Notes: generated by a model not told the origin, from the sequence alone. 32,000 nt of DNA from Candidatus Saccharimonadota bacterium (GCA_963705375.1 OY970071.1:600001-632000); one strand, 5' to 3'. Shown: positions 1 to 24,402, numbered from the stretch's first letter. Numbers and translations: made by a program.

Positions 1-3000
1 TGACCGTGTGCAGTATAGGCAGGTAGCTTATGCTCTTGAGCATGGCTGTGAAGTTGAATGCGGAAGTGGTGCCTATTCTTGCCGGATTGTTGGGCATTAG
101 CAAGTACGTGATGCCGTTTATTATCAGCGATGCAGAGCTAGACCCTATCGAACTCGCAGTAATTTCAAAAGATGTGCCGTTGAGCGAAACAGTCTTGGAA
201 TTCGGCACGGACATGTTCGATATCTCATAGCATGATGACGTTATCTTGGTAACAACAGGGCCTATGGGTCCGCCTGCGCCACTGCCGCCACTTGAACTCC
301 AGCCCGTGCTGCTGCCTCCTGATGAGGGCTGCACAGAGAATAGGCCAACAATAGGGTCACCGTTGAAGCTGAAAGAGACACTGCACGGAGCTGTGGTCGA
401 AACACTTGTCGGAGTTATCGCAGACCATGTCGCACCGCCATCCTTTGATATGAACGGTGTCGGTGCAGAGGTTACGCTGCACGAGTAATAAAGCACCGCA
501 TTCACGGTTATGTCGTTTGATGATGCAGGATTCACATACATAACCTCCACTGCAGAATGGCCAGGGTTGGAAGGGCTGCTCGATGTGATGTTCTGCACCA
601 CCACGTTGACGCTTTCAACTGCGGTGTTTGTGGTAGTGAATGTGAAGGATTGACCCAATATGTTTGTGGTTACCGGAACGTTGTTTGTTACATTCACGCC
701 TAATGAATTAGCAGGAGCGCCATTGAGGAGTATTGTGGTTTGTGATGTTTGCGGCACAAACACAACAATCTGAGCAGCTGTGACCTGGTTTGCGGAGACC
801 GCTGTTGTGGCCGAGTCTTTGACACCTATGCAGTAGTATGTGCTGATTGTTGGAGAGACAACGAACGTCGTTGACTGTCCAGAGACTCCCGATGCCGTAT
901 TTGCCACAGTAGTGTCAGATGAACATGTTGAGGATGAACCTGAGAACAGCGTTACTGCGAAGTTCGGTGCGCCGCCTGTCCAATTTGCGGTTATCGTATT
1001 GGACTGGCCATTGGCTATTGTTGCGCCAGTTGTTGTCAATGATGAGAGTGTGTTGTACATTGTCCACGATGTTGACGGTATTGAATTGAATGATGTGGAA
1101 ACTGAATCACTCATCACGAAGTTTCCGGTCTCTGTGCCTATCTCGTTAGAGGCAGTTGTCCATGTTGATGATAATGATGTGCCTGTCTGGTTAGGCATTG
1201 TAATTGTGTTTGTTATCGAACCTGTGTTCGTTATGATCGCGTTTCCTATGTAGCTCGGCGTCCCTCCTGTTATTGTTGCCGTGATGGTCTGAGTCTGGCC
1301 GACATCGACCTTCGCACTTGTCGGCGTTGGCTGTGATATCGATGGTGCGGCGTTGACCACAATCTGGACGGCAAAGAACTGGTTTGCTGACATAGCTGTG
1401 GTTGCGCTGTCCTTCATTCCGATGCAGTAGTATGTGCTACTGGTTGGAGAGGCGACGAATGTCGTTGAATGCCCCGAGATGCCTGATGCAGTATTAGCGA
1501 CAGTGGTGTCAGATGAACATGTCGAGGATGAACCTGAGAACAGCGTTACTGCGAAGTTCGGCGTGCCACCTGTCCAACTTACAGGTATTGTGTAGCTCTG
1601 GCCGTTGTCGATTGTTCCGCCGGACGTTGAGAGAGACGACATCAGCGAATTGACACCGAATGTGTTGGTCGTTGATGCAGAGCCACTTACGCCGTCTGTA
1701 ACTGTGAACTTGATCTGAGGCGCGCCTAGAGCGTTGTTCGTCTGAGGCACCCGGAATGTGAATGTCGCAGGCGAAGTCGTGATCATTAGTGAGTTCGCGA
1801 TCACGTTGCCATTGATCGTGTTGGTGATGTAGAAGTTCGCCGTGTATGGAGATGTGCCGCCTGTCCATGAACCCGTTATTGTCTCGTATTGCGACTGATC
1901 TGCGATGTTGTTCGATGACCAGGCGCTTGTGATTGATATTGCGGGGTTTACTACTATTTGAACTGCTGTGACCTGATTCGCAGTGTTGGCCACGGATGCG
2001 CTGTCATTTACGCCTATACAATAATATGTGCTGCTGGATGGGGAGACAACGAATGTCGTTGATTGGTCCGAGACGCCTGATGCAGTATTAGCGACAGTGG
2101 TGTCAGATGAACATGTCGAGGATGAACCTGAGAACAGTGTTACTGCGAAGTTCGGCGTGCCACCCGTCCAACTTACAGGTATAGTGTAGCTCTGGCCGTT
2201 GTCGATTGTTCCGCCGGACGTTGAGAGAGACGACATCAGCGAATTGACACCGAATGTGTTGGTCGTTGATGCAGAGCCACTTACGCCGTCTGTAACTGTG
2301 AACTTGATCTGAGGCGCGCCTAGAGCGTTGTTCGTCTGAGGTACCTGGAATGTGAATGTAGCCGGTGACGTCGCTGCTGAGACTACACCGGAAATTACGT
2401 TGCCATTGATCGTGTTGGTGATGTAGAAGTTCGCCGTGTATGGAGATGTGCCGCCTGTCCATGAACCCGTTATTGTCTCGTATTGCGACTGATCTGCGAT
2501 GTTGTTCGATGACCAGGCGCTTGTGATTGATATTGCGGGGTTTACTACTATTTGAACTGCTGTGACCTGATTCGCAGTGTTGGCCACGGATGCGCTGTCA
2601 TTTACGCCTATACAATAATATGTGCTGCTGGATGGGGAGACAACGAATGTCGTTGATTGGTCCGAGACGCCTGATGCAGTATTAGCGACAGTGGTGTCAG
2701 ATGAACATGTCGAGGATGAACCTGAGAACAGTGTTACTGCGAAGTTCGGCGTGCCACCCGTCCAACTTACAGGTATAGTGTAGCTCTGGCCGTTGTCGAT
2801 TGTTCCTCCGGACGTTGAGAGAGACGACATCAGCGAATTGACACCGAATGTGTTGGTCGTTGATGCAGAGCCACTTACGCCGTCTGTAACTGTGAACTTG
2901 ATCTGAGGCGCGCCTAGAGCGTTGTTCGTCTGAGGTACCTGGAATGTGAATGTAGCCGGTGACGTCGCTGCTGAGACTACACCGGAAATTACGTTGCCAT

Positions 3001-5287: not shown

Positions 5288-5590
5288 ATCACGCGCTTTT
5301 TACCAGAACCGTAAATCCAGCCTTTCCACGTCTTGCATTTTCAGCTTGGGAAAACCGATACTCAGACCTTACCTGTGCAGACCAGTATTTTGCTAAACTG
5401 AGTATGCTTAAATAGATTGTGTTTCTGATGTACAGTCTGTTTTGAGGAGCCGTTTTGGAGTTTTTGTGCAGTGCTGTGCTGGATGTGAATCGAGACGGAA
5501 TCCTACACATTGAAGAGCTCAGGCACACTAAAGGCGCTGTTGAAATAACTGCGACTCTGTTTGTAAAGGGAAAGTAAGCTTGAAGCTTGC

Positions 5591-7141: not shown

Positions 7142-7831
7142 ATGATGCAACAGAAAATAGTAACAGTCAAGCTTCGTAAAGGCGGTGAAGAGTTCGAGCT
7201 CCTTGTTGATGCAGGCATGGCATACGAGTACGTGACAGGCAAGCGCAGCGATCCTCTAAGCGTGCTGCAGACAGAAGAAGTGTTCAAGGATGCACGAAAG
7301 AACGAAAGGCAGAACATCGAGAAGATAAAGAAGGTGTTCGGAACAACTGACATAGTGAAGATAGCAGAAGTCATACTAAAGGAGGGGGATGTCCCGATGA
7401 CAGCTGAGCAGCGCAGCCAGCAGACAGAGGAGAAGCGCAAGCAGATAGTAGACATAATATCGAAGAATTCGATAGATCCAAGGACGAATGCACCAAATCC
7501 GCCAATGCGTATCGAAAACGCGATGAAAGAAGCGAAGGTGAACATAGATCCGTTCAAGAATTCCGGCGAGCAGGTAGAAGATATCGTCAAGAAGATAAGC
7601 ATCATAATGCCGATAAAGTTTGCAACAGTAAGGATGACCGTGACAGTGCCTCCGGCATTCGCAAACCGCGCCTTCGGTACGCTAAAGAAGTTCGGCATGA
7701 AGTCGGAACGCTGGCTTCCAGATGGCAGCCTGCAAGCGTCGCTCGAATTCCCTGCGGGAATGCAGAGTGACTTCTTGGAGCGCATAAACAACGCAACACA
7801 AGGGCAAGCAGACGTGAAGATAGAAAAGTGA
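7142..7831 (+). CDS. SBDS-family ribosome maturation protein (Sdo1)
   Basis: The N-terminal [14 protein letters not shown]...VFKDARKNE pattern and the position between psmA and rrp4 are typical of the archaeal superoperon. Confidence 0.85.
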
Positions 7832-10257: not shown

Positions 10258-10389
10258 ATGGCATACGTATGCGCACACTGCGGCAAGCAGATAAAGCAGT
10301 TTGACAATTTCGTCAGATGCACGTACTGCGGATTTAGGATACTGGTGAAGAAGAGACCGAACATAGCGAAGGAAATATCGACAGATTGA
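10258..10389 (+). CDS. rpoP: DNA-directed RNA polymerase subunit P (Rpo12), 43 aa
   Basis: MAYVCAHCGKQIKQFDNFVRCTYCGFRILVKKRPNIAKEISTD has the CxxC...CxxC zinc ribbon followed by RILxKxR. GTGAT 10250-10254 plus 3 nt precedes the ATG. The gene is below the ORF-track size cutoff. Confidence 0.85.
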   Translation: MAYVCAHCGKQIKQFDNFVRCTYCGFRILVKKRPNIAKEISTD

Positions 10390-10421
10390 TTATACGCGAT
10401 AAAAAGAAGAGGCAGGTGAAT

Positions 10422-10841
10422 ATGAAAGTTCTTTTCGTTTGCGGGGACAACATGGGAAGGAGCCAGGCAGCAGAAGCTCTGTTCAATCTGCATGCAAAGA
10501 CAAGCAAGGCAGAGAGCTGCGCTGGAAAGCTCGAGATCAAAGAGAACACCACACTTTCCGACATCAAGAATAACAAAAAAGTCGAGGATGTTGTCAAGAT
10601 ACTGAAGAAAGACTATAACATAGACATAAGCAAGAAGATGGCCAAGCCATTCAGCATGGATATGACGAATAACGCAGACATTATAATTTCGATGTGCTCT
10701 GAAGGCGAGTGCCTCAACATACCAAAAGCAGAGCACTGGGATGTTCCTTACCTTCCCCCACTAGATTTCAAGGGTAAAGAGGAGGCAATCAAGGCCCTCG
10801 ACGAAAAGATCAAGGATTTGTTAAAGAGGATAGGAGACTAA
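10422..10841 (+). CDS. Low-molecular-weight phosphotyrosine phosphatase / ArsC-like protein, paralog 1
   Basis: MKVLFVCGDNMGRSQAAE contains the CX5R(S) P-loop. GGTGA lies upstream of ATG 10422. The ORF-track TTG 10386 is probably too early. Confidence 0.8.
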   Translation: MKVLFVCGDNMGRSQAAEALFNLHAKTSKAESCAGKLEIKENTTLSDIKNNKKVEDVVKILKKDYNIDISKKMAKPFSMDMTNNADIIISMCSEGECLNIPKAEHWDVPYLPPLDFKGKEEAIKALDEKIKDLLKRIGD

Positions 10842-10894: not shown

Positions 10895-11311
10895 ATGAGG
10901 GTTCTTTTTGTTTGCGGCGATAATTTAGGTAGAAGCCAGGTTGCCGAGGCGCTGTTTAACCTGCACGCGAAAAGAAGCAAGGCAGAGAGCTGCGCTGGCA
11001 AACCTGAAGTCAAAGAAAGAAGATTGCTTGTGGATGTAAGGCACAAGTCTGTAGAAGAGTGCCTGGAGATAATGAAAAAAGATTATGGCATAGACATAAG
11101 CAGGAAAGTCTCAAAGCCTTTCAGCGCTGAAATGGTAAATGATGCAGACCGTGTAGTAATTCTCTGCTCTGGTTCGGAATGCCCAGACGTACCAGGCGCA
11201 GAGCATTGGGACATACCAAAGCTGTCGCCTCTTGACTTACATGGAAAACAAGAGGTTATCAAGACCATTGGCACTAAGGTCAATGAGCTACTGAACAGAA
11301 TCGGGGACTGA
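10895..11311 (+). CDS. Low-molecular-weight phosphotyrosine phosphatase / ArsC-like protein, paralog 2
   Basis: MRVLFVCGDNLGRSQVAE contains the CX5R(S) loop. The protein is collinear with the upstream paralog over its whole length. Confidence 0.8.
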   Translation: MRVLFVCGDNLGRSQVAEALFNLHAKRSKAESCAGKPEVKERRLLVDVRHKSVEECLEIMKKDYGIDISRKVSKPFSAEMVNDADRVVILCSGSECPDVPGAEHWDIPKLSPLDLHGKQEVIKTIGTKVNELLNRIGD

Positions 11312-12179: not shown

Positions 12180-12383
12180 TCAATCGCCAAATTTTATTCC
12201 ATAGGTGTCGATGTCGTCTTCGAGGACAGACTTCCTGCCGCTGGCTTTCGCCCTGTTCACGGCATAGCGTGCTATCTTCTTCGCCTTCTTCTCCAGCATG
12301 CGCGCTAGCGCGTCAGCGGCAGCATCGCTTATCGATATGCCGTTCCTGTTCACCATCCTCTTTATCGTCTGTTTTGATATCAT
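12180..12383 (-). CDS. Archaeal histone (histone-fold, HMf-like), 67 aa from ATG 12383 (ORF-track GTG 12407 is the alternative)
   Basis: ISKQTIKRMVNRNGISISDAAADALARMLEKKAKKIARYAVNRAKASGRKSVLEDDID matches the histone-fold layout, including the RKT/S-hydrophobic-x-x-x-D motif near the C-terminus. Confidence 0.75.
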   Translation of the reverse strand: MISKQTIKRMVNRNGISISDAAADALARMLEKKAKKIARYAVNRAKASGRKSVLEDDIDTYGIKFGD

Positions 12384-12537
12384 TTCAGCACTCAAGATCT
12401 TCGTCACAGCGTGAGCTCAGCTACAGTGCGATATTCATCATTGTAATTGGATTGGTTACAACCAATAAATAGTTTACTGTGCTGCGCATTCCGCATAGGT
12501 ATTTATATTTTAAGACGCGGAATTGTTCGGTGTTTTT

Positions 12538-12858
12538 GTGGGGATAACAAATGTAACCGACGCGAACTTTGAAGCTGAAGTTCTGAAATCCAAGATACCT
12601 GTGGTGGTCGACGTATGGGCACCGTGGTGTGGGCCGTGCAGGGCGTACGGGCCGATAGTGGAGGAGGTCGAAAAAGAGTATGCTGGAAAGGTCAAGTTTG
12701 TGAAGCTTGATGCTGATGAGAACGACAAAACCACGCAGAAATACGAGATAATGAGCATACCGACAACGATGCTGGTAGAGAAAGGTCAGATAAAGGCGGT
12801 GAACGTAGGGGCCATGCAGAAAGAGGCCCTCAAGAAATGGCTGCAGAGCAACCTATAG
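12538..12858 (+). CDS. trxA: Thioredoxin
   Basis: WAPWCGPCRAYGP active site. The TATA-like tatttatatttta at ~12500-12512 favours GTG 12538 over TTG 12523. Confidence 0.9.
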   Translation: MGITNVTDANFEAEVLKSKIPVVVDVWAPWCGPCRAYGPIVEEVEKEYAGKVKFVKLDADENDKTTQKYEIMSIPTTMLVEKGQIKAVNVGAMQKEALKKWLQSNL

Positions 12859-12875
12859 ACAAGCGGCGAGAGTGT

Positions 12876-13253
12876 ATGGAAATGCAACGAGAGAATTTTG
12901 ATAAAAAAGAAGAAAAAAACAAAGAACAGAACGGCACGCAGGACACGTGCATGAGCATAGCAGGAATAGATTTTGTCCGTGAAGGGCGTGACGCTGACAT
13001 CTATTGGATATCAAAAGAGATCCTAACCAAAAAGGACATTGAGGCGCTGGCGAAGGGGATATTGAAGACAGAATTTTGTATTGCTAACTATGCCGAAGAT
13101 GGGCGCGCGGTCCTAGTTGGAAAGAGCATTGAGGGGGACACACAACATCCAGATGGAGAAGTGCAGACCGGTAACAATTACAGGCACTACTTGCGATCGG
13201 TCACGAACATCTGCTTCACACATGGTTTATACACGGATGAAGACGAAGATTGA
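12876..13253 (+). CDS. Hypothetical protein (P1) whose domain is paralogous to the N-terminus of 15404-16069
   Basis: IAGIDFVREGRDADIYWISKEILTKKDIEALAKGILKTEFCIANY aligns with IAGFDFVMVRTGTGVCRVSDRALTRSDLENLSSSIANTDLHVANY. The start is uncertain: 12837, 12876 or 12949. Confidence 0.5.
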   Translation: MEMQRENFDKKEEKNKEQNGTQDTCMSIAGIDFVREGRDADIYWISKEILTKKDIEALAKGILKTEFCIANYAEDGRAVLVGKSIEGDTQHPDGEVQTGNNYRHYLRSVTNICFTHGLYTDEDED

Positions 13254-13291
13254 CACGCCGGCGTTCGAACCGCTTGCAGTACTGAATGTGA
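13249..13291 (+). pseudogene. Orphan 43-nt fragment of a hisS allele (codons 40-54 equivalent)
   Basis: 37/43 nt are identical to hisS 18176-18218. It reads IDTPAFEPLAVLN in one frame. All five differences within the 13 shared codons are at synonymous third positions. There is no HisRS similarity on either side. Confidence 0.7.
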
Positions 13292-13296
13292 GGATA

Positions 13297-14286
13297 TCAG
13301 GAGGGCTCGTGAAATTCCAACTTGGTAACTTGGGAGTCCATACAATTGAGTTCGAGAAAGAACTTTCTTGCCTCTTGATACAAGGTAGCAGCAATTCTTC
13401 CATCATCAATAGCTGGTGTCAGCACCAAAGGAAGCATCTTTTGCATTGAGTCTAATGCCTGCCCTGCCAGATTGTTTAGTTCGGAATCTACAGATGGAAT
13501 TTCTAACGCTCTTTCTGGCTCTAACGTATACATTCTAAGGGCATAATCGCGTGCAATAATATTAGTCACATGGTGAAGCGTAGCATCCTCATCATTTCCC
13601 ATAGACGCCTCAATTGCATCTATAGAAGAGGGATGATTTTCACTTCCCATCAGTCTAAACTGACTAGACACGAAGGACATTATACCATCTATCGGTCTTT
13701 CGGCCCCGGCGATGCTTTCGTTTAACTTTTGAACAAACGAGTCGTTTGAATTCAGGAGCCTTGCCTTTAAGGTGAGCATAGGTTCAGAATTCGAAAGCAA
13801 AGGAATGGAAGCAAGTAAGGCAGCTTCAAGCAACATAGTTGATCTATCGTTTGAATTTGAATGGGCCATAATATTTAGACATGTATTAACACGGCCACTA
13901 AATGTGTCAATAATACTCTCTATGAATTCCTGTCGTGGATTTTCAAGCGGACGCGCGTTACGGATAGTATCATTTATCTCATTTACAGGCTTGGCAAAAT
14001 TTATTAACAAATTGTTGCCGTTGTTAAGTGTAGCTTCGCTGATTCGAGGAACAACATAAAGCGAACCCTTAGCAGCGTGATTAACCCTCCCTATAATCTT
14101 AGCAAGCACAGGATCGCTTTGCTTTTCTGCATTAGCAAGCGTCAGGTTTTCAGATCGTGAGTTCTTTATGTCATTTACTACATGTGCTACTCCCTCCGCA
14201 AAAGGCTTCACATAATCCTTTGAGCTAGCAACTTGGCCAATGGCTTGGAACGGTTGAGACACTATCTTTTGAGCATCCAGAGGCAC
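13297..14286 (-). CDS. Hypothetical protein, 329 aa (ORFan)
   Basis: Complete ORF. GTG 14286 is preceded by GGTGAT + cat on the minus strand, and a TATA-like ttatatttatat lies ~30 nt upstream. Confidence 0.6.
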   Translation of the reverse strand: MPLDAQKIVSQPFQAIGQVASSKDYVKPFAEGVAHVVNDIKNSRSENLTLANAEKQSDPVLAKIIGRVNHAAKGSLYVVPRISEATLNNGNNLLINFAKPVNEINDTIRNARPLENPRQEFIESIIDTFSGRVNTCLNIMAHSNSNDRSTMLLEAALLASIPLLSNSEPMLTLKARLLNSNDSFVQKLNESIAGAERPIDGIMSFVSSQFRLMGSENHPSSIDAIEASMGNDEDATLHHVTNIIARDYALRMYTLEPERALEIPSVDSELNNLAGQALDSMQKMLPLVLTPAIDDGRIAATLYQEARKFFLELNCMDSQVTKLEFHEPS

Positions 14287-14363
14287 ATGATCACCATAAC
14301 TCTGCTTTACGCATATAAATATAACTTTTGCTTCTGAGTGCCATACTGTGGGACCTCAGAAGA

Positions 14364-15095
14364 TCACAGAACATCTTTTGTCCCCTGCACCTGCAGTTCG
14401 GCCAATTGAAGCGTAAGGGCTTTGATTTTTCCTTCAACGTCACGCTTTGTTTCGCCATCATCCATAATCTTCACAATTTCCTCGTACGTTTTTATTTCAT
14501 CGGCCATCAACATGGAGGCGTTTTCGGGAAACTTATTTCTTTCCTCTGCAAGCCTATTGACAGTCGCAAATAGGTCTTTAATTGTCTGCACGTTAAGTAT
14601 GTGACGCTCCCATTCTTCTAAGCCCGCAATAGTATCCAGAATTGGTGCGTTGTCAGATCCGCAATGCTCTGCTAAACTCTTCCATAGATCTTTAGCAGCA
14701 GTGACGAAGCGTATATCATAAGGGTGCATGTTTGCAGCAGATAATGCTTTCCAAGCTGAATGTTCCGTAGACTCGTATTCTGAAAGAGCATTCAGCTGTA
14801 CCATAACGTCGTCAACTGCATCTTCTACGACCGAAGGCGTACGTAGCAGTTTAGAAGTATCTGTAGAATTTTCATCAACCGATCCGGCAGAATTGGCAAT
14901 CTCCAGTTCATTCTGAGATAATAGGTCCCGTCTAATATCGACAAGGTGTGGCACAGGACCTTGAGCGTTTCCAGGGCCGGGAAGATTTTCAACATTCAGC
15001 CTATCAAGGGTACTTTCGTCTCGAGATGCACGATCTTCTGCACCTCTTTTCTCCTTATCAACGGGCATATGCTCAGGCAGTAGTATATACGGCAT
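14364..15095 (-). CDS. Hypothetical acidic protein, 243 aa (ORFan); the start may be ATG 15068
   Basis: Complete ORF. A minus-strand ATAAATAT box at ~15101-15108 sits too close to ATG 15095 and fits a leaderless start at 15068 better. Confidence 0.55.
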   Translation of the reverse strand: MPYILLPEHMPVDKEKRGAEDRASRDESTLDRLNVENLPGPGNAQGPVPHLVDIRRDLLSQNELEIANSAGSVDENSTDTSKLLRTPSVVEDAVDDVMVQLNALSEYESTEHSAWKALSAANMHPYDIRFVTAAKDLWKSLAEHCGSDNAPILDTIAGLEEWERHILNVQTIKDLFATVNRLAEERNKFPENASMLMADEIKTYEEIVKIMDDGETKRDVEGKIKALTLQLAELQVQGTKDVL

Positions 15096-15403
15096 AGGAG
15101 ATATTTATGGGTATGGCAATTTTGGGTCATTGAATTGGTATATAAACCTTTGCATTATGGGGTTGTAGATCTAGAGTTCTGACTGGCATAGAATCTATTC
15201 TTTCGCGAGGGAGGATATGATGGATCCATTTTGCCTGTTTTCTCGCCATCGATCTGACTGTTCCCAGATTAAGTGTTCGCACGACCACTTTATCGCTAAG
15301 GGCACTTATCCGCTTTGACTATAGGAACTTATTTTGAGATAAGACAGCTAGGAGTTATAGAGGAAAGTCATAAGTATTTAAAAAATAAACCGATTGTGAT
15401 TAA

Positions 15404-16069
15404 ATGGAGAGCACGACAGTACAAAGGAATATTCAGAAGATCGCAGGTTTTGATTTTGTAATGGTCAGAACAGGTACAGGCGTGTGCCGGGTATCAGATA
15501 GGGCATTGACCAGAAGTGATTTGGAGAACCTGTCGAGTTCGATAGCGAACACTGACTTGCATGTTGCTAATTATAAGGAAGTGGCAATAATGTACCGCTC
15601 AAGCCTCCGTGCAGGGCAAGTTTCTTCGTTTGAACACGCGTTTGAAGAAGGCGTTGCGACTTGTGACATAGGGTTCGAGATGGACGAAGCAGGGCCGTAT
15701 AAGATCCTTGACCATGACATCAAGACACTGTTGGAAGAACAACAAAGATGGTTCAACCTAACAATTAGGGACGTAGACGACATAGTAAAAAACAAACTAT
15801 TCGGCGAAGCAGAGTCAGACAGGGTTCTGCTGCATTCTGGAAAAGGCCATGTGACCCTTAGAACGATGAGCATTGGCGGCAATGCTTATCTCGAAATTTC
15901 TGCAGGATCCATTTTCAAAGGGGATGATAGAGGTCACGTTATTTTGCTTGGAAATACAGAAGAAGCAGCAGCACGGCAAGGCAACAAGGAGATGCCAACG
16001 AACAACTATGAAGACCTTATGAGGAGAGACCCTGACACCTTCATAGGCAACCACAAATATTGCAGATAA
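15404..16069 (+). CDS. Hypothetical protein (P2), 221 aa, N-terminal domain paralogous to P1
   Basis: Complete ORF with a TATTTAAAAAATAAA box at 15375-15389. See the alignment with P1. Confidence 0.6.
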   Translation: MESTTVQRNIQKIAGFDFVMVRTGTGVCRVSDRALTRSDLENLSSSIANTDLHVANYKEVAIMYRSSLRAGQVSSFEHAFEEGVATCDIGFEMDEAGPYKILDHDIKTLLEEQQRWFNLTIRDVDDIVKNKLFGEAESDRVLLHSGKGHVTLRTMSIGGNAYLEISAGSIFKGDDRGHVILLGNTEEAAARQGNKEMPTNNYEDLMRRDPDTFIGNHKYCR

Positions 16070-16082
16070 ATACAGTGGGCAG

Positions 16083-16457
16083 GTGTGCCTGCCCAAAAGT
16101 CATATATATCTCCTGCGCAGTAAATATCATACAAGGCAAAGTGAGAGTGATGACGGACCAACACGAAGTGTGCAATCATATGCACATATTGATGGCTGCT
16201 GTGCCTTGCAACTAAGGCCAATCATAGCAAGAGCTCTCAACAAAAACCAGATTCTGATTCTTAATGCAGTCAACTCTAACACAGAATACCGAATATACAG
16301 CACAACCGCTCTTCTGAACAAACTAAGCTCGGAGCGAGGTGTGCCGACTTCTACACTAAGACTAAACACGAGCATACTCGAAGAGTTGGGCCTGATAGAG
16401 AAGAAGTCGGCCATGCTTACTGAGATTGGAAGACTGATACTTTCGATTATGATGTGA
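16083..16457 (+). CDS. Winged-helix (MarR/ArsR-like) DNA-binding protein; start uncertain
   Basis: The C-terminal ~75 aa, ILILNAVNSNTEYRIYSTTALLNKLSSERGVPTSTLRLNTSILEELGLIEKKSAMLTEIGRLIL, fit a wHTH pattern. The N-terminal part from GTG 16083 looks non-globular, so a later TTG or GTG start is possible. Confidence 0.55.
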   Translation: MCLPKSHIYLLRSKYHTRQSESDDGPTRSVQSYAHIDGCCALQLRPIIARALNKNQILILNAVNSNTEYRIYSTTALLNKLSSERGVPTSTLRLNTSILEELGLIEKKSAMLTEIGRLILSIMM

Positions 16458-16461
16458 TAGA

Positions 16462-17310
16462 ATGACAAAAACATATTTGGTTACGAAAGATCTGGTAGAA
16501 ACGCTGAGAAACAAGTACGTGCTGGAAATACCAGACACTCTAGCCATTCAAGTCAGAGGCATAGAGAATGAGTTCCTAAAGAAGTTCTGGGAAACCATCG
16601 ATTTGCCGGAAAGTGTGGAGAAGAAAACAGTTGATGCACAAGAACTTGCGCGTATGCTTTCTGAAAAGCTCACTGGGCTGCTAAGATGTGAATCCAAATG
16701 CAACGACTACTACATAAGCATGGACAGGATATACCTTCCAGAAGCCCCTGCGTTCTTGGAAGTAACAAGGATCACAAACCGAGAAACTGGAAAGTATGAG
16801 ATAGGGCCGCGCGCAGGCTGCGGCCCGCTTAATGCCCAAATAGCAAGCATGGGATTAGACCGCGGAAGCAAGATCACACTGGCAGACGTTGGTGCGTTCA
16901 GTGGAGGCACGCTGAACAAAATCTGCTTCATGTTCGAACAGCAAGGCATAACAATTTCCAACATATGTTTAGGCGTCGCAAATTCTGCAATTGCCACGAT
17001 AGAAGACTCTGGCATAAAAGACACGCTTACTGTGGCGCTTTGGTTTGATTTTTACGAATGGATAGAACTAAGGAAGCTATTGATTGACGGGAGGCTTGTA
17101 GGTGTTAGAAATGATGGCATACGGGAGTACATACCCTACTATTTGGGAGACCTGGAGGATTGGGCCAGCATACCTGCAGACAAAGTGGAAGAAACGGCAG
17201 AGCTATGCAAGACATATAGTGAACGGCTCATTTGCCTCCTTAGAGAGTATGGGACATCTGAACGCGAAATAAAAGAAAGAATAGGCGTTCCTGTCAAAAT
17301 GACAGGTTAG
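16462..17310 (+). CDS. Hypothetical protein with a possible type-I phosphoribosyltransferase-like PRPP loop, 282 aa
   Basis: GTGAT 16454-16458 plus 3 nt precedes the ATG. The motif SKITLADVGAFSGGTLNKI resembles the hydrophobic-strand-D-x-x-x-x-(T/S)G-G-T PRPP-binding loop. The fold assignment is inference only. Confidence 0.6.
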   Translation: MTKTYLVTKDLVETLRNKYVLEIPDTLAIQVRGIENEFLKKFWETIDLPESVEKKTVDAQELARMLSEKLTGLLRCESKCNDYYISMDRIYLPEAPAFLEVTRITNRETGKYEIGPRAGCGPLNAQIASMGLDRGSKITLADVGAFSGGTLNKICFMFEQQGITISNICLGVANSAIATIEDSGIKDTLTVALWFDFYEWIELRKLLIDGRLVGVRNDGIREYIPYYLGDLEDWASIPADKVEETAELCKTYSERLICLLREYGTSEREIKERIGVPVKMTG

Positions 17311-17393
17311 GTTTAAGTGAGTAACCATTGTAAAAGATAGATACACGTAAGTGTTTAGCGATACGGTCTAACAGTATTTGAATGGTTGAGGCA

Positions 17394-17945
17394 ATGAGAA
17401 GATTACAAATAGGAGTGATGGGATCAGCAGCGGATTTAAAATATTCAAAATCTGCTGAAATGGCAGCGACAAGGCTGGGGGAGTTGATAGCAAAGAACAA
17501 CGGCATACTGATATTCGGCGCAGAAAAGGATGGCGATTCACTTTCAGCTGCTGCTTGCAGGGGTGCAAAAAAGGCAGGAGGGCTCACAGTCGGAATAACA
17601 TATAATAAAGGAAAGGACGTACGGCAGAAAGAAGATGTTGATGTGATAATTCCGTGTGGATTGGAGCGTGGAGGCGGCAGAGAGTTTGTATTGACGCTTG
17701 CCTGCGACGCAATAATAGCAATAAGCGGCGGCTCTGGAACCCTTAATGAAATAGCTGTAGCGTACCAGGCAGACATCCCAATAATAGTGCTTGGCGGGTT
17801 CGGAGGCTGGGCCGAAGAGCTGGCAGATAGATATCTAGACGGCAGGAAACGCAGAAAGGCCATCCTTGCCAAGACACCTGATGAAGCAGCAGGATTGGCG
17901 TTTAAAGAAGCCGGACTTTATGCCAAGAAGTATGATGGTGCATAA
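17394..17945 (+). CDS. TIGR00725-type SLOG/LOG-like Rossmann protein
   Basis: IGVMGSA...GILIFGA...AACRGAKKAGGLTVGI...DVIIPCG...AIIAISGGSGTLNEIAVAY...PIIVLGG follows the LOG/DprA-like (GGxGTxxE) family pattern. GAGG lies upstream of ATG 17394. Confidence 0.8.
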   Translation: MRRLQIGVMGSAADLKYSKSAEMAATRLGELIAKNNGILIFGAEKDGDSLSAAACRGAKKAGGLTVGITYNKGKDVRQKEDVDVIIPCGLERGGGREFVLTLACDAIIAISGGSGTLNEIAVAYQADIPIIVLGGFGGWAEELADRYLDGRKRRKAILAKTPDEAAGLAFKEAGLYAKKYDGA

Positions 17946-18058
17946 ACCAAGTAGTTCTGGAAAGGACTCTTGTAGAGCATTACCGCAGGAACCGAAGTTA
18001 TTGCGACCCATCCATAATAAAAAGATTCTCAGAGAAAATGTAACTACGTTGTGATACA

Positions 18059-19333
18059 GTGCCAGAAATACCCTTCCCACGTGGAGTTAGAGACCTGATG
18101 CCGAATGAGGCACTATTCAGAAATGAGCTGCTTAAGAGTGTAGAGAGCACTTTCCAGCTCTTCGGCTTTTCCGCCATTGATACTCCGGCATTTGAACCGC
18201 TTGCAGTTCTGAATGCGAAAAATGCCATTGGAGAAGATACCAAGTTGATATACGAGCTAAAGGAAGAAAACCTTGGCCTCCGCTACGACCTCACAGTGTC
18301 GCTTGCACGCTACATGGCCATGCACCAAGAATTGCCGATGCCGTTCAAGCGCTACCAGATAGGCAAGGTCTGGCGCAGGGAGGAACCTCAGAAGCTGAGA
18401 TACCGGGAGTTCACGCAGGCAGATGCAGACATAGTCGGCGGAACCAGATCGCTTGCTGATGCAGAAGCGATAGCGGCAGGGGCGTACGCGCTAGAAAGAA
18501 TAGGCATCGATTACGTAATAAAGATAAATGACAGAGCGCTCATGGAGAAGGTGTTTGAAAAGATAGGCGTAGACAAAGAGTTGTTCGTAGGCGCCGCAAG
18601 GGCTATAGACAAACTCGAAAAGGTAGGGGAAGACCGGGTGTCTGAGGCTTTGAGAGGCCTCGGAATAGGCAACGACGCTGTGGATGGCATAACAGAACTG
18701 GCAAGGCTTGGCGGATCGAACACATACAAAATGTCGTACATAGACGAGCTGCTCGGTGATGAAAAAGCCGCGAAGGATTTGAAGGACACACTTCTGGCGC
18801 TTGCACAGTACAGTGTGCATGGCGATGCTATAGTCGACTTCTCTTTGATGAGAGGGCTCGATTACTACACTGGAATCGTGTTCGAAATCAAGGCAAAGAG
18901 CGACCTGATTGGACCATCCATTGCTGGCGGAGGCAGGTACGACAACCTTGTCGGCATATACGCAGGCAAAGCAATGCCAGCTGTCGGAGTTTCTTTAGGA
19001 ATAGAACGGATACTTCAGTTGCTTAATTATTCCTCATCGACAGAGTGCAGCTATGCGAAGGTCTTCGTCGCATACGTCAAGGATAAAAACTACAGCTACG
19101 CATTGAAAGTGGCAAATACGCTAAGAGCAAAGAGCATACCAACTGAGATAAACATATCATCACGTAACCTCGCAAACCAGCTCGCGCATGCAAACAGCTT
19201 GAAGATAAAGTATGTGATAATAATCGGCGATGTCGAGGAAAAGGCCGGAAAGCTAAAGCTGCGCAATCTTGTGAGCGGGGACGAGCAGATTATCGGAGTT
19301 GAAGATGCTGCAAATATGATAAAAGGGGTTTGA
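18059..19333 (+). CDS. hisS: Histidine--tRNA ligase
   Basis: Class II motifs are present: RYREFTQADADIVG and AGGGRYDNLVG. A C-terminal anticodon-binding domain is present. GTG 18059 is preceded by GTGAT 18051-18055 plus 3 nt. Confidence 0.95.
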   Translation: MPEIPFPRGVRDLMPNEALFRNELLKSVESTFQLFGFSAIDTPAFEPLAVLNAKNAIGEDTKLIYELKEENLGLRYDLTVSLARYMAMHQELPMPFKRYQIGKVWRREEPQKLRYREFTQADADIVGGTRSLADAEAIAAGAYALERIGIDYVIKINDRALMEKVFEKIGVDKELFVGAARAIDKLEKVGEDRVSEALRGLGIGNDAVDGITELARLGGSNTYKMSYIDELLGDEKAAKDLKDTLLALAQYSVHGDAIVDFSLMRGLDYYTGIVFEIKAKSDLIGPSIAGGGRYDNLVGIYAGKAMPAVGVSLGIERILQLLNYSSSTECSYAKVFVAYVKDKNYSYALKVANTLRAKSIPTEINISSRNLANQLAHANSLKIKYVIIIGDVEEKAGKLKLRNLVSGDEQIIGVEDAANMIKGV

Positions 19334-19855
19334 ATGGCAAAATCGGATGTTGACGTACTGACAGAAGAGAAGGTTGGAAAGGGCGGAGTCCTCGCTAAGA
19401 TATATTTTGACATGCAGAGCAAGAACAGGGAGGAGATACAGCCGGCGCTTGTGGAGCTCATAAACGAGCATCTGCTAAAGGAGCGTGGAGTGGTCTACTG
19501 CTACGGCGCTGTTGACGAACCCATAGAGCAGGGTGGTGTGTTCATAACCAACGCAATAGTCACGGTGCTCGTTGAGAATTTTTTAACCCTTGTGAACATC
19601 GCTTTCAACTACTCGCCTGCCGGTGTGGAGATAATTAAACCTGATAGAGAGATAAGTTTCAAGCCGTCAGAGCTGCAGTCGATGCTCCTGGACATATCGC
19701 AGATTTCAATCAATTACTCAAGGTACGTGCTTGAGCACGTCCTAACTCCAGAGGATTTGACCAAGATAACTGCACAGCTCGAGAACAGGAAGGTAGTTGG
19801 CAAGCAGCTCATGGAGAAGAAAGAAGAAAATAAAGACGGGCAGGGCAGCAAGTAG
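19334..19855 (+). CDS. Hypothetical protein, 173 aa, translationally coupled to hisS (TGAATG)
   Basis: Complete ORF abutting the hisS stop. No motif recognised. Confidence 0.55.
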   Translation: MAKSDVDVLTEEKVGKGGVLAKIYFDMQSKNREEIQPALVELINEHLLKERGVVYCYGAVDEPIEQGGVFITNAIVTVLVENFLTLVNIAFNYSPAGVEIIKPDREISFKPSELQSMLLDISQISINYSRYVLEHVLTPEDLTKITAQLENRKVVGKQLMEKKEENKDGQGSK

Positions 19856-19868
19856 CGCAGTGCGGCAG

Positions 19869-21326
19869 TCAGTTGCCAGCAGCATACCACACCGTGCCGT
19901 GCTCGGTATCCTCCAACATCACCTTGTAGTCACGCTCCAGTTCTGACCGTACAGCGTCAGCCTTTTCGAAGTCCCTGCTGGCCCTTAGAGCATCTCGTTC
20001 CCTTATTAGGGCGTATGCCCTGCTTGGAATGCCCTTCTTGTACGAATCCTGCGTGAGCAAGCCAACAACATGAGGCAGGCCAACTACAGAGTCCATCACA
20101 GTGTTCTTCGTCTTTGCACCGATGCCTTCCTGCGTGTCTGCAAGTACCCTCAGGGCGTTTATTGCCGTTATAAGATGAGAGAGTGCAAGCGGCGTGTCAA
20201 AGTCGTCATTCATGGCCTTTACAAACCCGTTTGAGAAGCTCTTCGCTATCTTCAGCGCTTCAGAATCTGTATTTTCGTTCTCTACATCTTTCATATTATA
20301 AAACAGGCTGAGCGCAGAATACATGTACCGGAGCGACTTCCTCGCATTATCGATTAGCTCGTCCGTGTAATCAATGCTCTTTCTATAGTGTGTCGAGAAT
20401 ATCATGTAGCGCAGCTCCTCCGCGCTGTGCTTGCTGAGCACATCCCTTATGGTTATGAAGTTTTTCAGGCTCTTGCTCATCTTCTGGCCTTTTATGTTCA
20501 GAACTCCAGAATGCAGCCAGTATTTTACGAACCTGTTTGTACCGAAGGCCGCCTCTGCCTGCGCTATCTCGTTGGAATGGTGAGGGAATATGAGTTCGCT
20601 GGCGCCTCCGTGCAGATCGTACTCAGGTCCGAAAATCGCATAGGTCATTGCAGTGTCTTCTATGTGCCATCCAGGCCTGCCTTCAAGCACCTTCTCGCCG
20701 TCAGGGAATTTGATCGTTATCTTCCAGGATGGCTCATCGGGCTTTGCTGCTTTCCAGAGTGCGAAGTCGTACTCGTGTCTCTTGCCTTCCTTTGGTTCTA
20801 TTCTGTGTTCCTGCAGCATGTCTATGCTCATTCCCGAAAGCTTGGTGTAGTCCTTAAATCTTGCCACATCATAATACACGTCACCGTCAAGATGGTAGGC
20901 GTAGCCATTATCTGCAAGCATCTGTATCTGCTCTTTTATTGTATCGATATAATCGTGCGACCGCGGAAACATGTCTACGGATTCCTTCGCTCCGACCGCA
21001 TGCAGATCTTCCAGGAAACGGGCCTCGTAATGGCGCGCCAGTTCGAAAGGTTTTATCCCGCGCTCTTTTGCCCTGTTTATTATCTTGTCTTCGACATCTG
21101 TTATGTTTTGAATGTACTTTACCTTGTAGCCGAGGTACCTTAGCCATCGCGCCACTATGTCAAAATCGATGTATGTTCTTGCATGGCCTACGTGCGCATC
21201 ATCATACACAGTCTGACCGCAAACGAACATGTTCACGGACTTGTCGTGCAACGGCACGAACTTCTCTTTCGACCTTGAAAGGGTGTTGTAGACAATCAAC
21301 GGCACAAAATCACTATTTTTATTCAA
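19869..21326 (-). CDS. cysS: Cysteine--tRNA ligase
   Basis: HIGH-type HVGHARTY and KMSKS motifs; 485 aa. Confidence 0.95.
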   Translation of the reverse strand: MNKNSDFVPLIVYNTLSRSKEKFVPLHDKSVNMFVCGQTVYDDAHVGHARTYIDFDIVARWLRYLGYKVKYIQNITDVEDKIINRAKERGIKPFELARHYEARFLEDLHAVGAKESVDMFPRSHDYIDTIKEQIQMLADNGYAYHLDGDVYYDVARFKDYTKLSGMSIDMLQEHRIEPKEGKRHEYDFALWKAAKPDEPSWKITIKFPDGEKVLEGRPGWHIEDTAMTYAIFGPEYDLHGGASELIFPHHSNEIAQAEAAFGTNRFVKYWLHSGVLNIKGQKMSKSLKNFITIRDVLSKHSAEELRYMIFSTHYRKSIDYTDELIDNARKSLRYMYSALSLFYNMKDVENENTDSEALKIAKSFSNGFVKAMNDDFDTPLALSHLITAINALRVLADTQEGIGAKTKNTVMDSVVGLPHVVGLLTQDSYKKGIPSRAYALIRERDALRASRDFEKADAVRSELERDYKVMLEDTEHGTVWYAAGN

Positions 21327-21351: not shown

Positions 21352-22245
21352 TTATTCTTTATAATTGATTGTGCTTAGATAACGCTCTCCGCGGTCTGGC
21401 AAGACAGTCACTACACACCTATACCTCTTGAGCAGTTCTCTTGCGGCCAGCATGTTCGCCCCAGAGCTTATCCCAACCAGGAGTCCGTGTTTCCTTGCCA
21501 GCTCTTTGGTCATTGCGATTGCATCATCGCCGTTTACAGTGACGACCTCATCGATGATGCTGCGGTGGTCTGCCACCAGTTTTGGGATAAATCCCTCTCC
21601 AATACCTTGTATGCGGTGCGCTCCAGGTTCGCCCCCTGATAGTACGGGGGATTCTGCGGGCTCGACTCCGATTATCCGTACATTGGGATTCGCTTCTTTC
21701 AACGCCTTTGCGATACCAATTAGCGTTCCGCCAGTCCCTATCCCGGCAACGAATGCGTCAACCATACCTTTCGTCTCGTTTATAATCTCCTTACCAGTAC
21801 CCTGCCTGTGCGCTTCTATGTTGTCTTCGTTCTCGAACTGTCTGGGCAACCAGGCGTCAGGGTAGGCCTTGATAAGTTCTTCGTATTTTCTGATAGCGCC
21901 ACCCATGTCTTCACCTGCAGGCGTGAGCACCAGTTCGGCCCCGAACGCTTCCATCATCTTCCTTCTTTCCACACTCATCGATTCGGGCATGACTGCGGTG
22001 AATTTGTACCCCTTTATGGCGGAAATCATGGCGAAAGATATCCCAGTATTCCCGCTTGTTGCCTCTATTATCCTGCTTCCAGGTTTTAGAATGCCTCGTT
22101 CCTCCGCTTTCTTAACCATGTACCAAGCCATACGGTCTTTTATGCTGCCAGTAGGGTTAGTCGTTTCCAGTTTTGCCAGTATCCCATCTATTTGGAGCAT
22201 AGGAGTGTTCCCTACCAAGTCCAGCATGCTATTTTTGACGTTCAT
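21352..22245 (-). CDS. PLP-dependent cysteine synthase family protein (CysK/CysM/CBS-like)
   Basis: NPTGSIKDRMAWYMV contains the PLP-lysine motif, and SGNTGISFA is present. Confidence 0.88.
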   Translation of the reverse strand: MNVKNSMLDLVGNTPMLQIDGILAKLETTNPTGSIKDRMAWYMVKKAEERGILKPGSRIIEATSGNTGISFAMISAIKGYKFTAVMPESMSVERRKMMEAFGAELVLTPAGEDMGGAIRKYEELIKAYPDAWLPRQFENEDNIEAHRQGTGKEIINETKGMVDAFVAGIGTGGTLIGIAKALKEANPNVRIIGVEPAESPVLSGGEPGAHRIQGIGEGFIPKLVADHRSIIDEVVTVNGDDAIAMTKELARKHGLLVGISSGANMLAARELLKRYRCVVTVLPDRGERYLSTINYKE

Positions 22246-22256
22246 GAAATCAACAT

Positions 22257-23177
22257 TTATTCTAAAATGTTTTGACTAAATAAGCCTATACTTAAATACT
22301 TCTCGCCATTATCTGGCAGTACGGCCACCACGATGCCGGCATTGTTCAGCGCAGCCGATTTCTTGAGCGCGACATACAGTATTGCAGCAGAGCTCATACC
22401 CGCAAATAACCCTTCTTCTTTGGCCAGCTTGCCTGCCAGATTGAGAATATCAGGCATAGTCTCACCCCCTATCTCTATTATCTCGTCAAAATATTTATCG
22501 TCGAACAGAGCGGTCGGATTGGACTCTTTAGGGTTTCGTAGGCCGTGTATGCTAACGCCAACCTTCGGAGTCACGCCTATGATCCTTATATCTTTGTTGT
22601 ACTCTTTGACTCGCATGGAAACCCCCACGCCAGTACCTGCTGTGCCGATACCCATCACTATCGTGTTCACTTTTCCATCAGTTTGATCAAGAATTTCTTT
22701 GCCCGTAGTTTCATAATGCGCTTGTATGTTTGCAGGGTCTCCAAACTGGTTTATGTCAACATACTTGTCAGGACTTTCCCTTAAAATTTTCCGCTTAAGT
22801 TCTATGGCTCCGGACGTACCTTGTTCGGCCGGCGAGAGGATAAGTTCTGCCCCGTACGCCCTAATTATTTGTCGTCTTTCCATGCTTGCAGATGCAGGCA
22901 TCACTACTGAAACTTTGTACCCTTTTACTGCGGATATCATTGCAAGCGCTATACCTGTATTGCCCGACGTCGCCTCCAGAATGGTTTTTTCGCCGTTTAA
23001 TCGTCTGGCGGTTTCTGCAGAGTTAATCAGATACAGTGCGGCCCTGTCCTTTATGGAGCCGCCGATGTTGTACCACTCCAGTTTTGCATACAATGTGGCA
23101 CCATCAGGGTTCGCAGACCTTATCTTTATCATCGGCGTTTTCCCTATGAGATCGAGTATGCTGTTTACAACGGCCAT
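22257..23177 (-). CDS. PLP-dependent cysteine synthase family protein, second paralog
   Basis: NIGGSIKDRAALYLI and SGNTGIALA. The start is chosen at ATG 23177 because the minus strand reads GGTGATTGTATG (23186-23175). The ORF-track ATG 23189 is the alternative. Confidence 0.88.
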   Translation of the reverse strand: MAVVNSILDLIGKTPMIKIRSANPDGATLYAKLEWYNIGGSIKDRAALYLINSAETARRLNGEKTILEATSGNTGIALAMISAVKGYKVSVVMPASASMERRQIIRAYGAELILSPAEQGTSGAIELKRKILRESPDKYVDINQFGDPANIQAHYETTGKEILDQTDGKVNTIVMGIGTAGTGVGVSMRVKEYNKDIRIIGVTPKVGVSIHGLRNPKESNPTALFDDKYFDEIIEIGGETMPDILNLAGKLAKEEGLFAGMSSAAILYVALKKSAALNNAGIVVAVLPDNGEKYLSIGLFSQNILE

Positions 23178-23361
23178 ACAATCACCCATTACCCTGAAAA
23201 AGGACTAGAAGGAAACTACTGCGCGTCCTGGCTTGCCCTGCGTTCAATACATATTTGACTCTGTAGAGCATCTGCATTGGCGGGACATCACGTTCACTGC
23301 GGTCACTATGAATATTAAGGTATAAAAAGATACTGTACAGCAAAACGGCTCCTTGTGCACT

Positions 23362-24402
23362 CTATGTGAAGTTGTATGTTATGTTTGATATGATTCCTTG
23401 CTGTTGTAAGGGCCTTGCTGCAAGAACAAAGTCGCCGACGGCTATGAAATGAAGCTCGCTTGATGTGCTTGCAACAACCCTTATGCGTACAGCCTTTCCA
23501 GCAAGATAGCTCAGATCCATAGTCGCATTTCGGAAGGTGGACGCCGCATTAAAATCAAGGGACGTGTTGTATGTGTTGTAGTGCGCAAGTATCTTAGGGG
23601 TGTTGTTCTCTAGCACTTCCAGATAAAGGAATTCGTCGTCAGGACTTATCACCTTGAAGTTCACGAAAGGTTTTGAAGGATTCACTATGAAAGGACTCGA
23701 TGTGATGTTGCCGGGGCCTGTTGAAACACCGCAGTTGAACGTCGTCGCAAAGAATGTGCCATTGTAGCCAAGCCACGGTTCGCCGATATAGCACATCTTT
23801 TTGTTCGCTTGGGTCAGGTTAAGAGGCATGGTGCCGAAGCCTGCATTCGTGACTTTCCATCCTACAAACGTTCCGGTGCCAAAATTTCCATTATAGATAA
23901 AGTTTCTGACTATGGTTGGAGGTGTCGTGGTTTTGTTAAGGGTCAGGGCAGCATTGCCGCAGCTTCCTCCGCCAAGACCGGAGCGCAGAGTTACGTTATA
24001 TATTTGGGCCGGAAGCGATACATTTTCATAAAATGTTTTGCAGGCATAAGTGGAACTCTGATTCACATAAGTAGTGTTGCCTGATGTTATGGTGACGAGC
24101 TCGGCACCAGAATTCCCAGCAGCAACCCACATGCCGATAAGACCGCCGGTCCATCTACATCTCCCTGTCGTGCTGGAATTTTCTGCAGCAAGGTTTAGAT
24201 TGAAATTGCTGCAGCTGACCACGGATTGTGAAAAATTAAATATAGTGGTGCTGCTCGGTTTCGAGGCATTTATTGTTGTGCTATTGGACCCGATCGACGT
24301 GGTCGTGCGTGCAGGTTTTTTGAAATAAGCGTGCACTTCGACGTAAGCAAGCGCACCCATGATGATGAACAATATGATGAAAACAGGAATGCCCTTATTC
24401 AT
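23362..24402 (-). CDS. Secreted/membrane-anchored protein rich in N-glycosylation sequons, 346 aa
   Basis: N-terminal hydrophobic helix IPVFIILFIIMGALAYV. I count at least 15 NxS/T sequons in the translation. No catalytic motif recognised. Confidence 0.65.
   Translation of the reverse strand: MNKGIPVFIILFIIMGALAYVEVHAYFKKPARTTTSIGSNSTTINASKPSSTTIFNFSQSVVSCSNFNLNLAAENSSTTGRCRWTGGLIGMWVAAGNSGAELVTITSGNTTYVNQSSTYACKTFYENVSLPAQIYNVTLRSGLGGGSCGNAALTLNKTTTPPTIVRNFIYNGNFGTGTFVGWKVTNAGFGTMPLNLTQANKKMCYIGEPWLGYNGTFFATTFNCGVSTGPGNITSSPFIVNPSKPFVNFKVISPDDEFLYLEVLENNTPKILAHYNTYNTSLDFNAASTFRNATMDLSYLAGKAVRIRVVASTSSELHFIAVGDFVLAARPLQQQGIISNITYNFT

Follow-up and report, generated by a model that had tools for sequence, protein, structure and literature searches.

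Genomic islands can accumulate at hotspots between core genes (regions of genome plasticity): one pair of conserved genes then encloses cargo that varies from strain to strain. On a smaller scale, illegitimate or homology-facilitated recombination leaves short gene relics behind, and filler DNA is found at repair junctions. For the islands and prophages that are specific for dusA it was described that integration takes place in the 5' part of the gene and that the island supplies a new 5' end, while the native 5' remnant is found at the far junction and the integrase adjoins the attachment (att) site (Farrugia et al., 2015; PMC4482086). The locus that is compared here with these systems is the region between the thioredoxin gene (trx) and hisS, encoding histidyl-tRNA synthetase (HisRS), in a 32,000-nt stretch of DNA deposited under the name Candidatus Saccharimonadota bacterium (GCA_963705375.1, OY970071.1:600001-632000; hereafter the window). 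In this region a 43-nt fragment that matches the 5' part of hisS lies 4.9 kb away from its counterpart in the resident gene. An earlier note on the window, made from the sequence alone, had taken the two copies for a candidate scar, either of an element that integrated in hisS and supplied it with a new 5' end or of a replacement of hisS by recombination.

Integration of the dusA type is the closest described system to this model. The dusA islands and the locus are alike in that foreign DNA lies between imperfect direct repeats that stem from the 5' region of a housekeeping gene, which itself is intact on one side (PMC4482086). Unlike the dusA islands, however, the block in the window has no integrase and no 5' remnant, there is no sign of a foreign 5' end or promoter of hisS, and the repeats lie off the limits of the inserted DNA; three of the four features tested are lacking. 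With islands at hotspots between core genes the locus shares a spacer that is empty in most relatives and holds varied cargo elsewhere, a lower GC content at third codon positions (GC3), three open reading frames (ORFs) without relatives (ORFans) and the absence of an integrase. It differs from them in that the block holds a short piece of the adjacent core gene, which is seen in 0 of the 41 related loci, and in its host, a DPANN archaeon of small genome size (source contig 1.21 Mb). With gene relics and filler DNA, finally, the fragment has in common that it is a copy of a nearby gene, tens of nucleotides long and with abrupt ends, at the junction of segments of unlike composition, whereas microhomology is not visible and the divergence is more like that of two coding alleles than like the decay of a fresh copy. 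A search of the literature on filler DNA yielded mostly eukaryotic papers. Taken together, the locus adds a further case to a kind that is already known: an accessory island in a hotspot, here with a small gene relic inside.

The spacer between trx and hisS is a site of recurrent insertion

The comparison of HisRS puts the window in the Micrarchaeota (DPANN archaea). Its closest HisRS relatives are encoded by the genome locus L001 (83%, full length) and by the metagenome contigs L027 (78%) and L028 (75%). Synteny was examined in a set of 42 loci including the window (41 related loci, 570 kb), with which the ORFs of the window were compared by tblastn. The conserved order of the neighbourhood is a PRC-barrel protein, a 200-aa gene without family match, a histone, thioredoxin, hisS, an MJ0538-like gene and CysRS. 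The distance from trx to hisS amounts to 5,200 nt in the window, as against 7-124 nt in some 30 genomes and metagenome contigs of relatives (98 nt in L027 and 67 nt in L042). This indicates that the DNA between trx and hisS in the window is a lineage-specific insertion. The adjacency of the two genes without the block, which the earlier note had singled out for comparison, is thus documented by these empty sites. Conspecific or closer strains did not emerge from exact-protein look-ups with HisRS, thioredoxin and the MJ0538-like neighbour, which returned this strain only.

The limits of the insertion could be read from the empty sites. On the left, the homology with the relatives stops at the trx stop codon (12858). 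Because the gene at 12951-13253 is absent from the relatives and is a paralog of the gene at 15404-16069, the block starts at this stop codon and not at 13249, where the left copy of the repeat begins. On the right, the edge lies at about 18009, as the segment 18010-18033 (ATCCATAATAAAAAGATTCTCAGA), about 30 nt before the hisS start, is shared with the spacer of L027 and is also conserved in L001, which means that the homology starts again about 170 nt before the right copy is reached. The block, which is an insertion relative to the relatives with the trx stop and the conserved hisS promoter as its edges, consequently extends over about 12859-18009 (about 5.2 kb) and is absent from the empty sites. 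The left repeat is found 390 nt inside the insertion, and the right repeat 170 nt beyond its right edge, past the conserved promoter. Since the gene at 12951-13253 is part of the block, the hisS fragment is internal to the block and not at its edge. As judged from this comparison of loci, the repeats do not mark the limits of the insertion, and the idea that the hisS copies bracket the block as an att scar with a newly supplied 5' end was not sustained, given the position of the repeats and the absence of both a remnant and an integrase. No discontinuity relative to the relatives was seen in the resident hisS at codons 39/54, in a comparison of low power. In codons 1-39 the third-position identity to L001 was 0.49 and GC3 was 0.54, as compared with 0.54 and 0.56 in the remainder of the gene; with just 39 codons and synonymous sites near saturation, the power of both comparisons is low.

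Other cargo was found at the same spacer in relatives. In L001, where the gap between trx and hisS measures 1,014 nt, it is a GNAT acetyltransferase gene (PF00583; L001:9258-9908), which is placed between trx and the conserved hisS promoter segment. L002 (gap 903 nt) contains a gene for a PIG-L/LmbE deacetylase (PF02585; L002:7236-7940), and L016 (gap 504 nt; L016:9170-11284) a homolog of the winged-helix gene of the block. The cargo of the window consists of 7 genes. No scrap of hisS was found in the flanks of the related loci. The differing cargo of L001, L002 and L016 without such a scrap implies that insertion there normally takes place without hisS sequence. The spacer from the trx stop to the hisS promoter, roughly 50-100 nt when empty, is a site of recurrent gene gain and loss in Micrarchaeota, and the block is a variable genomic island at a hotspot between core genes, as syntenic flanks, differing cargo and atypical composition were all observed.

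Two further arrangements at this site may be recorded. In L006 (L006:1-2243) a winged-helix homolog is followed by a HisG gene (ATP phosphoribosyltransferase, PF01634) and then by hisS; the occurrence of winged-helix homologs 5' of hisS in the distant loci L006 and L016 may reflect an older association at the site, of a regulatory kind or related to histidine. In L025 (the same as L036; L025:5976-7391) an intein that carries a LAGLIDADG homing-endonuclease domain splits trx in frame, so that the ORF measures 471 aa (PF14890, PF14528). L025 is labelled Acidoferrum bacterium; its gene order matches that of Micrarchaeota and it is probably mis-binned.

A piece of hisS lies inside the block

A repeat search and a direct alignment within the window showed that the left copy, 13249-13291 (ATTGACACGCCGGCGTTCGAACCGCTTGCAGTACTGAATGTGA), is identical to hisS 18176-18218 (ATTGATACTCCGGCATTTGAACCGCTTGCAGTTCTGAATGCGA) at 37 of 43 positions and in frame. 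The longest exact repeat between the copies is a core of 14 nt (GAACCGCTTGCAGT). In the hisS frame the translations of both copies are alike (IDTPAFEPLAVLN). Five of the six differences are synonymous third-position changes, exactly as the earlier note had read them, coordinates included; the sixth is non-synonymous and affects codon 14 of the repeat, which is GTG (Val) in the left copy and GCG (Ala) in hisS. A chance match was rejected, as the runner-up for the hisS 43-mer on both strands of the window reaches 24/43 and the probability of a 37/43 repeat, estimated binomially for all pairs of positions, is about 2e-7. When the window was compared with itself by BLAST, the hisS repeat was the sole one of its kind besides tandem arrays, paralogs and one inverted match of 37 nt. 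This last (7500-7536 against 21689-21725, 84% identity) lies in two distant genes and may represent a shared protein motif. A widespread repeated motif, which the earlier note had named as the alternative to a hisS origin, was rejected as well: a degenerate 39-nt pattern gave 0 matches in viral contigs, and among the 42 loci the two copies occur in the window only.

The fragment occupies the whole of the 43-nt spacer between the convergent stop codons at 13253 and 13297, as noted before, and in addition its first bases form the TGA stop (13251-13253) of the gene at 12951-13253. Its boundaries are sharp on the left and on the right, the homology with hisS ending abruptly at each. Flanking hisS homology at the left copy was not detected by tblastn, tblastx or short-word blastn. 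The frame 5' of the left copy reads ...MVYTRMKTK, unlike HisRS residues 1-39, and to the left of 13249 no trace of either hisS codons 1-39 or the hisS promoter was found in any frame or at the DNA level. The left edge of the block has nothing beyond a generic ATAAAAA in common with the hisS promoter that would point to a duplication, and microhomology is not visible at the fragment junctions on either side. An RNA element was rejected, since the fragment has no Rfam match, folds no better than shuffled sequences and forms no stable fold. An assembly artefact is unlikely, because an independently assembled Logan contig (ERR11594402; L026) is 100% identical over window positions 12354-21281, that is across the whole block, and reproduces both junctions; moreover, the longest exact repeat is just 14 nt. 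The fragment is also in frame within an ORF at 13237-13449 (+ strand; TTG start at 13117, internal ATG at 13237) that would encode MKTK-IDTPAFEPLAVLNV... This ORF overlaps the opposite-strand gene at 13297-14286 and is probably spurious, but it would be the sole route to the expression of a HisRS-like peptide.

A probable origin of the fragment in the resident hisS lineage or a close relative

The left copy matches the hisS genes of relatives at 24-34 of 43 positions (32-34/43 for L001 and L027), as compared with 37/43 for the resident hisS; the two copies in the window are each other's closest relatives. None of the compared loci encodes IDTPAFEPLAVLN exactly. As the fragment is closer to the resident hisS than to that of any relative, its source would be the lineage of the resident gene itself or a very close relative of it, at a time later than the separation from L001 and L027. 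Between the copies the proportion of synonymous differences (pS) is 0.44, the synonymous divergence (dS) about 0.67 and the proportion of non-synonymous differences (pN) 0.03. The probability of at least 5 synonymous changes in 6 amounts to 0.054 for a neutral local copy beside a constrained resident gene, and to 0.007 if all changes fell in the fragment. This pattern weakly favours a divergence during which both copies would have been coding. The claim that the left copy stems from a different, once-functional hisS allele therefore survives as a suggestion only. Polarisation with outgroups, which is noisy, assigns about 3 changes to each lineage and the single non-synonymous change to the side of the fragment. 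The fragment has G/C-ending codons (ACG, TTC, GCG, GAC) where the resident hisS has A/T, and the hisS of the window is A/T-shifted relative to its kin (GC3 0.55 as against 0.65-0.85). On the codons, the balance leans toward a donor allele of a somewhat GC-richer close relative.

Genes and composition of the block

The features of the locus are collected in Table 1. The database search for the ORF 12837-13253, carried out among 5.8e9 proteins, gave its self match only, and so did that for the gene at 13297-14286, which was also subjected to a full HMMER scan of 1.84e9 representatives. The description of everything between the hisS copies as ORFan or accessory was borne out for the two genes thus searched there (13297-14286 and 15404-16069), each of which found itself only, as did the third gene searched (12951-13253), to the left of the fragment. 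The paralogy of 12951-13253 and 15404-16069 rests on 38% identity over 47 aa (E=2e-8) and on a second, C-terminal segment (E=0.007). The gene at 14364-15095 has no relative among viral contigs. For the gene at 16462-17310, previously labelled PRTase-like, this label has no support: there is no Pfam match at E<=10, no meaningful match to PDB sequences, no viral relative and no similarity to the HisG gene that precedes hisS in L006, and other sequence searches were equally silent. Single-sequence AlphaFold2 models of 16462-17310 and 13297-14286 were unusable, with predicted local distance difference test (pLDDT) scores of 37.5 and 37. The SLOG gene at 17382-17945 is absent from the related loci.

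Table 1. Features in and around the block between trx and hisS (positions in the window).
Feature	Position	Strand	Evidence
Thioredoxin gene (trx); conserved left neighbour, left edge of the variable spot	12538..12858	+	Pfam PF00085, E=1.8e-30; orthologs directly 5' of hisS in ~30 loci
ORFan, 100 aa as called in databases (longest ORF from 12837); member of the block	12951..13253	+	Self match only; absent from related loci
Probable hisS pseudogene fragment, codons 40-54 (IDTPAFEPLAVLN), near the HisRS N-terminus	13249..13291	+	37/43 to 18176-18218
ORFan, 329 aa; lowest GC3 of the block (0.38)	13297..14286	-	Self matches only, no family match
Gene of 243 aa, GC3 0.385	14364..15095	-	Sub-threshold Pfam match PF12325 (TMF_TATA_bd) only; absent from related loci
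ORFan, 221 aa; paralog of 12951-13253	15404..16069	+	Database search: self match only
Small winged-helix regulator, TK0271-family / Csa3-like C-terminal domain	16170..16457	+	NCBIfam NF053753, E=7.8e-16, below curated cut-off; PADLOC Csa3, E=3e-5
Gene of 282 aa, no family match	16462..17310	+	Pfam, PHROGs, NCBIfam and PADLOC negative
SLOG-superfamily gene (LDcluster4 / TIGR00725-like); last gene of the block	17382..17945	+	PF18306, E=1.9e-32; TIGR00725, E=2.7e-25, below curated cut-off
hisS promoter/leader segment (ATCCATAATAAAAAGATTCTCAGA), A/T-rich, TATA-like; right edge of the insertion	18010..18033	+	23/24 to L027, conserved in L001
Resident hisS, intact, 424 aa, GTG start; right copy of the repeat at 18176-18218	18059..19333	+	PF13393 and PF03129; 83% to L001

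No integrase, recombinase, transposase or replication protein was recognized in the block with four profile libraries (Pfam, PHROGs, NCBIfam and PADLOC), in agreement with the earlier note, which had seen no integrase either. The block genes and the 43-mer, for which that note had proposed a search in plasmids and viruses, had nothing similar in IMG/VR contigs, PLSDB plasmids or GenBank phages. Scraps of other core genes were not found in the block.

The composition of the block, of which the earlier note had proposed a comparison with the flanks, deviates from that of its surroundings. The GC content is 0.42-0.45 across 13000-17500 as against 0.47-0.50 in the flanks, and GC3 is 0.38-0.50 in the block genes as against mostly 0.54-0.71 in flanking genes, three of which are as low as 0.48-0.51 (10895-11311, 22257-23189 and 23362-24402). 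The fragment sits between sub-blocks of unlike composition, with a step in GC3 from 0.50 in 12951-13253 on its left to 0.38 in the pair 13297-14286 and 14364-15095 on its right; the paralogous ORFans lie on either side of it. An A/T-rich (TATA-like) inverted repeat of 26 nt (15084-15109 and 16101-16126, 81% complementary) flanks the ORFan at 15404-16069; its arms may be divergent promoter elements or a chance match.

Outside the block, a stop-free frame of at least 747 codons on the minus strand (1-5299) reaches from 5299 down past 3058 and apparently continues beyond the first position of the window. With tandem units of 594 nt (762-3142, 76-94% identical) and of 129 nt (43 aa; 4485-5142), it looks like a giant gene for a repeat-rich protein, of which three ORFs of 119 aa at 1509-3056 are probably shadow frames. 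The adjacent genes at 10386-10841 and 10895-11311 (+ strand) are paralogs with 67% DNA identity and both match PF01451 (LMWPc, the low-molecular-weight phosphotyrosine phosphatase family).

Discussion

The fragment is probably a piece of a hisS pseudogene (codons 40-54) that was captured at a junction inside a mosaic island in the hotspot and has been trimmed since. The source would be a hisS allele of the same lineage (the resident gene at an early time, or the allele of a close strain that came with incoming DNA), from which the piece would have been copied or captured during illegitimate or homology-assisted recombination next to hisS. Deletions or further insertions would then have trimmed it on both sides, and it would now have no function beyond that of a stop codon for 12951-13253, while the resident hisS would have kept its own promoter and 5' end and would never have been interrupted. 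Because of the synonymous-only pattern, the allele of a closely related strain on incoming DNA appears somewhat more likely as the donor than an old copy of the resident gene. Several points weigh against capture of such a relic. The synonymous bias is marginal (P=0.054), and a local copy and a foreign allele are not separable by it. Exact-protein look-ups yielded no genome of this species or genus that lacks the block or shows an intermediate arrangement, so that the order of events is a reconstruction. The two illegitimate junctions, the exact fill between two stops and the donated stop codon amount to a coincidence that a relic leaves unexplained, and as the block genes are ORFans, a novel recombinase may be among them.

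If no foreign allele were involved, the 43 nt could be filler or patch DNA for which the resident hisS, at a distance of 4.9 kb, served as the template during double-strand-break repair or rearrangement, the two copies having drifted apart afterwards. We regard this as unlikely, although a short, sharp-ended fragment exactly at the junction of convergent genes is what such a copy would look like, the two copies are mutually nearest with derived states that are absent from L001 and L027, about 3 changes fall on each lineage with the non-synonymous one on that of the fragment, and the excess of synonymous changes reaches just P=0.054. A neutral stretch of 43 nt should, however, gain about 4 times the changes of the resident's roughly 11 synonymous sites, mostly at codon positions 1 and 2; the observed split is about 3:3 with 1 of 6 changes non-synonymous (binomial estimate, P about 0.1), and the G/C-ending codons were kept despite the A/T-shifted genome. 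The model derived from the earlier note invokes a hisS-targeting integrative element, now decayed, that recognized codons 40-54 and brought its own promoter and codons 1-39, with 13249-13291 as attL and 18176-18218 as attR. It is quite improbable. Imperfect direct repeats with an exact core of 14 nt (GAACCGCTTGCAGT) and diverged arms do resemble hybrid att sites (PMC4482086), the synonymous-only divergence fits two once-functional alleles, and both the composition and the genes of the DNA between the copies look foreign. Moreover, the promoter of an element that came from a close relative would resemble that of L001 and L027, so that the conservation of the promoter is no strict exclusion. Yet the hisS promoter looks orthologous, nothing of hisS codons 1-39 or of the promoter is left beside the supposed attL, whose left side holds instead a paralog of a gene within the supposed element, and there is no break in identity or GC3 in hisS codons 1-39 (at low power). 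The four profile libraries returned no integrase or recombinase, three relatives carry cargo in the spacer between trx and the promoter without hisS repeats, and the viral and plasmid contigs contain neither the 43-mer nor the block genes. The model has to assume that the native 5' end, the promoter and the integrase were deleted later and that 12951-13253 was overlaid by a second, related element; this requires at least 2 extra precise deletions, ending at codon 40 and at the end of 12951-13253, in addition to the loss of the integrase.

The fragment might also have a function of its own. Read-through mRNA of 13297-14286 would be antisense to hisS codons 40-54, or the fragment could serve as a sense decoy in the 3' untranslated region of 12951-13253; with the antisense RNA the island would be able to modulate an essential aminoacyl-tRNA synthetase. 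T5 termination runs are absent from both strands of 13100-13500, and convergent transcripts probably cross the fragment. The antisense RNA would pair with the hisS mRNA at about 39 of 43 positions including G:U (predicted duplex energy about -64 kcal/mol), and the fragment is better preserved than neutral decay predicts. Such pairing is, however, a trivial consequence of homology, the fragment has neither an Rfam match nor a structure, and the block is known from one genome only; a function is very improbable. There is a very slight chance that the fragment is either the att sequence of an unseen kind of DPANN element that lacks an integrase and uses a new recombinase, for example that encoded by 13297-14286, or an antisense device of the island on the hisS mRNA. 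If so, the new recombinase would use a conserved N-terminal stretch of HisRS as its target, or the antisense RNA would tune, or hold hostage, the mRNA of an essential gene. A single tandem duplication of the segment from the paralog to hisS was rejected, the paralogs being 38% identical at the protein level and the hisS copies 86% at the DNA level.

Direct repeats that derive from a gene and lie around foreign DNA need not be att sites, and the limits of the insertion should be determined first, with the aid of empty sites. With capture of a hisS relic as the preferred explanation, the scrap would be a physical trace that DNA which carried, or was copied from, a hisS allele of the same lineage took part in the assembly of the block. 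It points to recombination between relatives or to local rearrangement and not to a classical, integrase-mediated insertion. The locus documents a recombination hotspot between trx and hisS in the Micrarchaeota, organisms with tiny genomes in which the routes of gene gain are poorly known.

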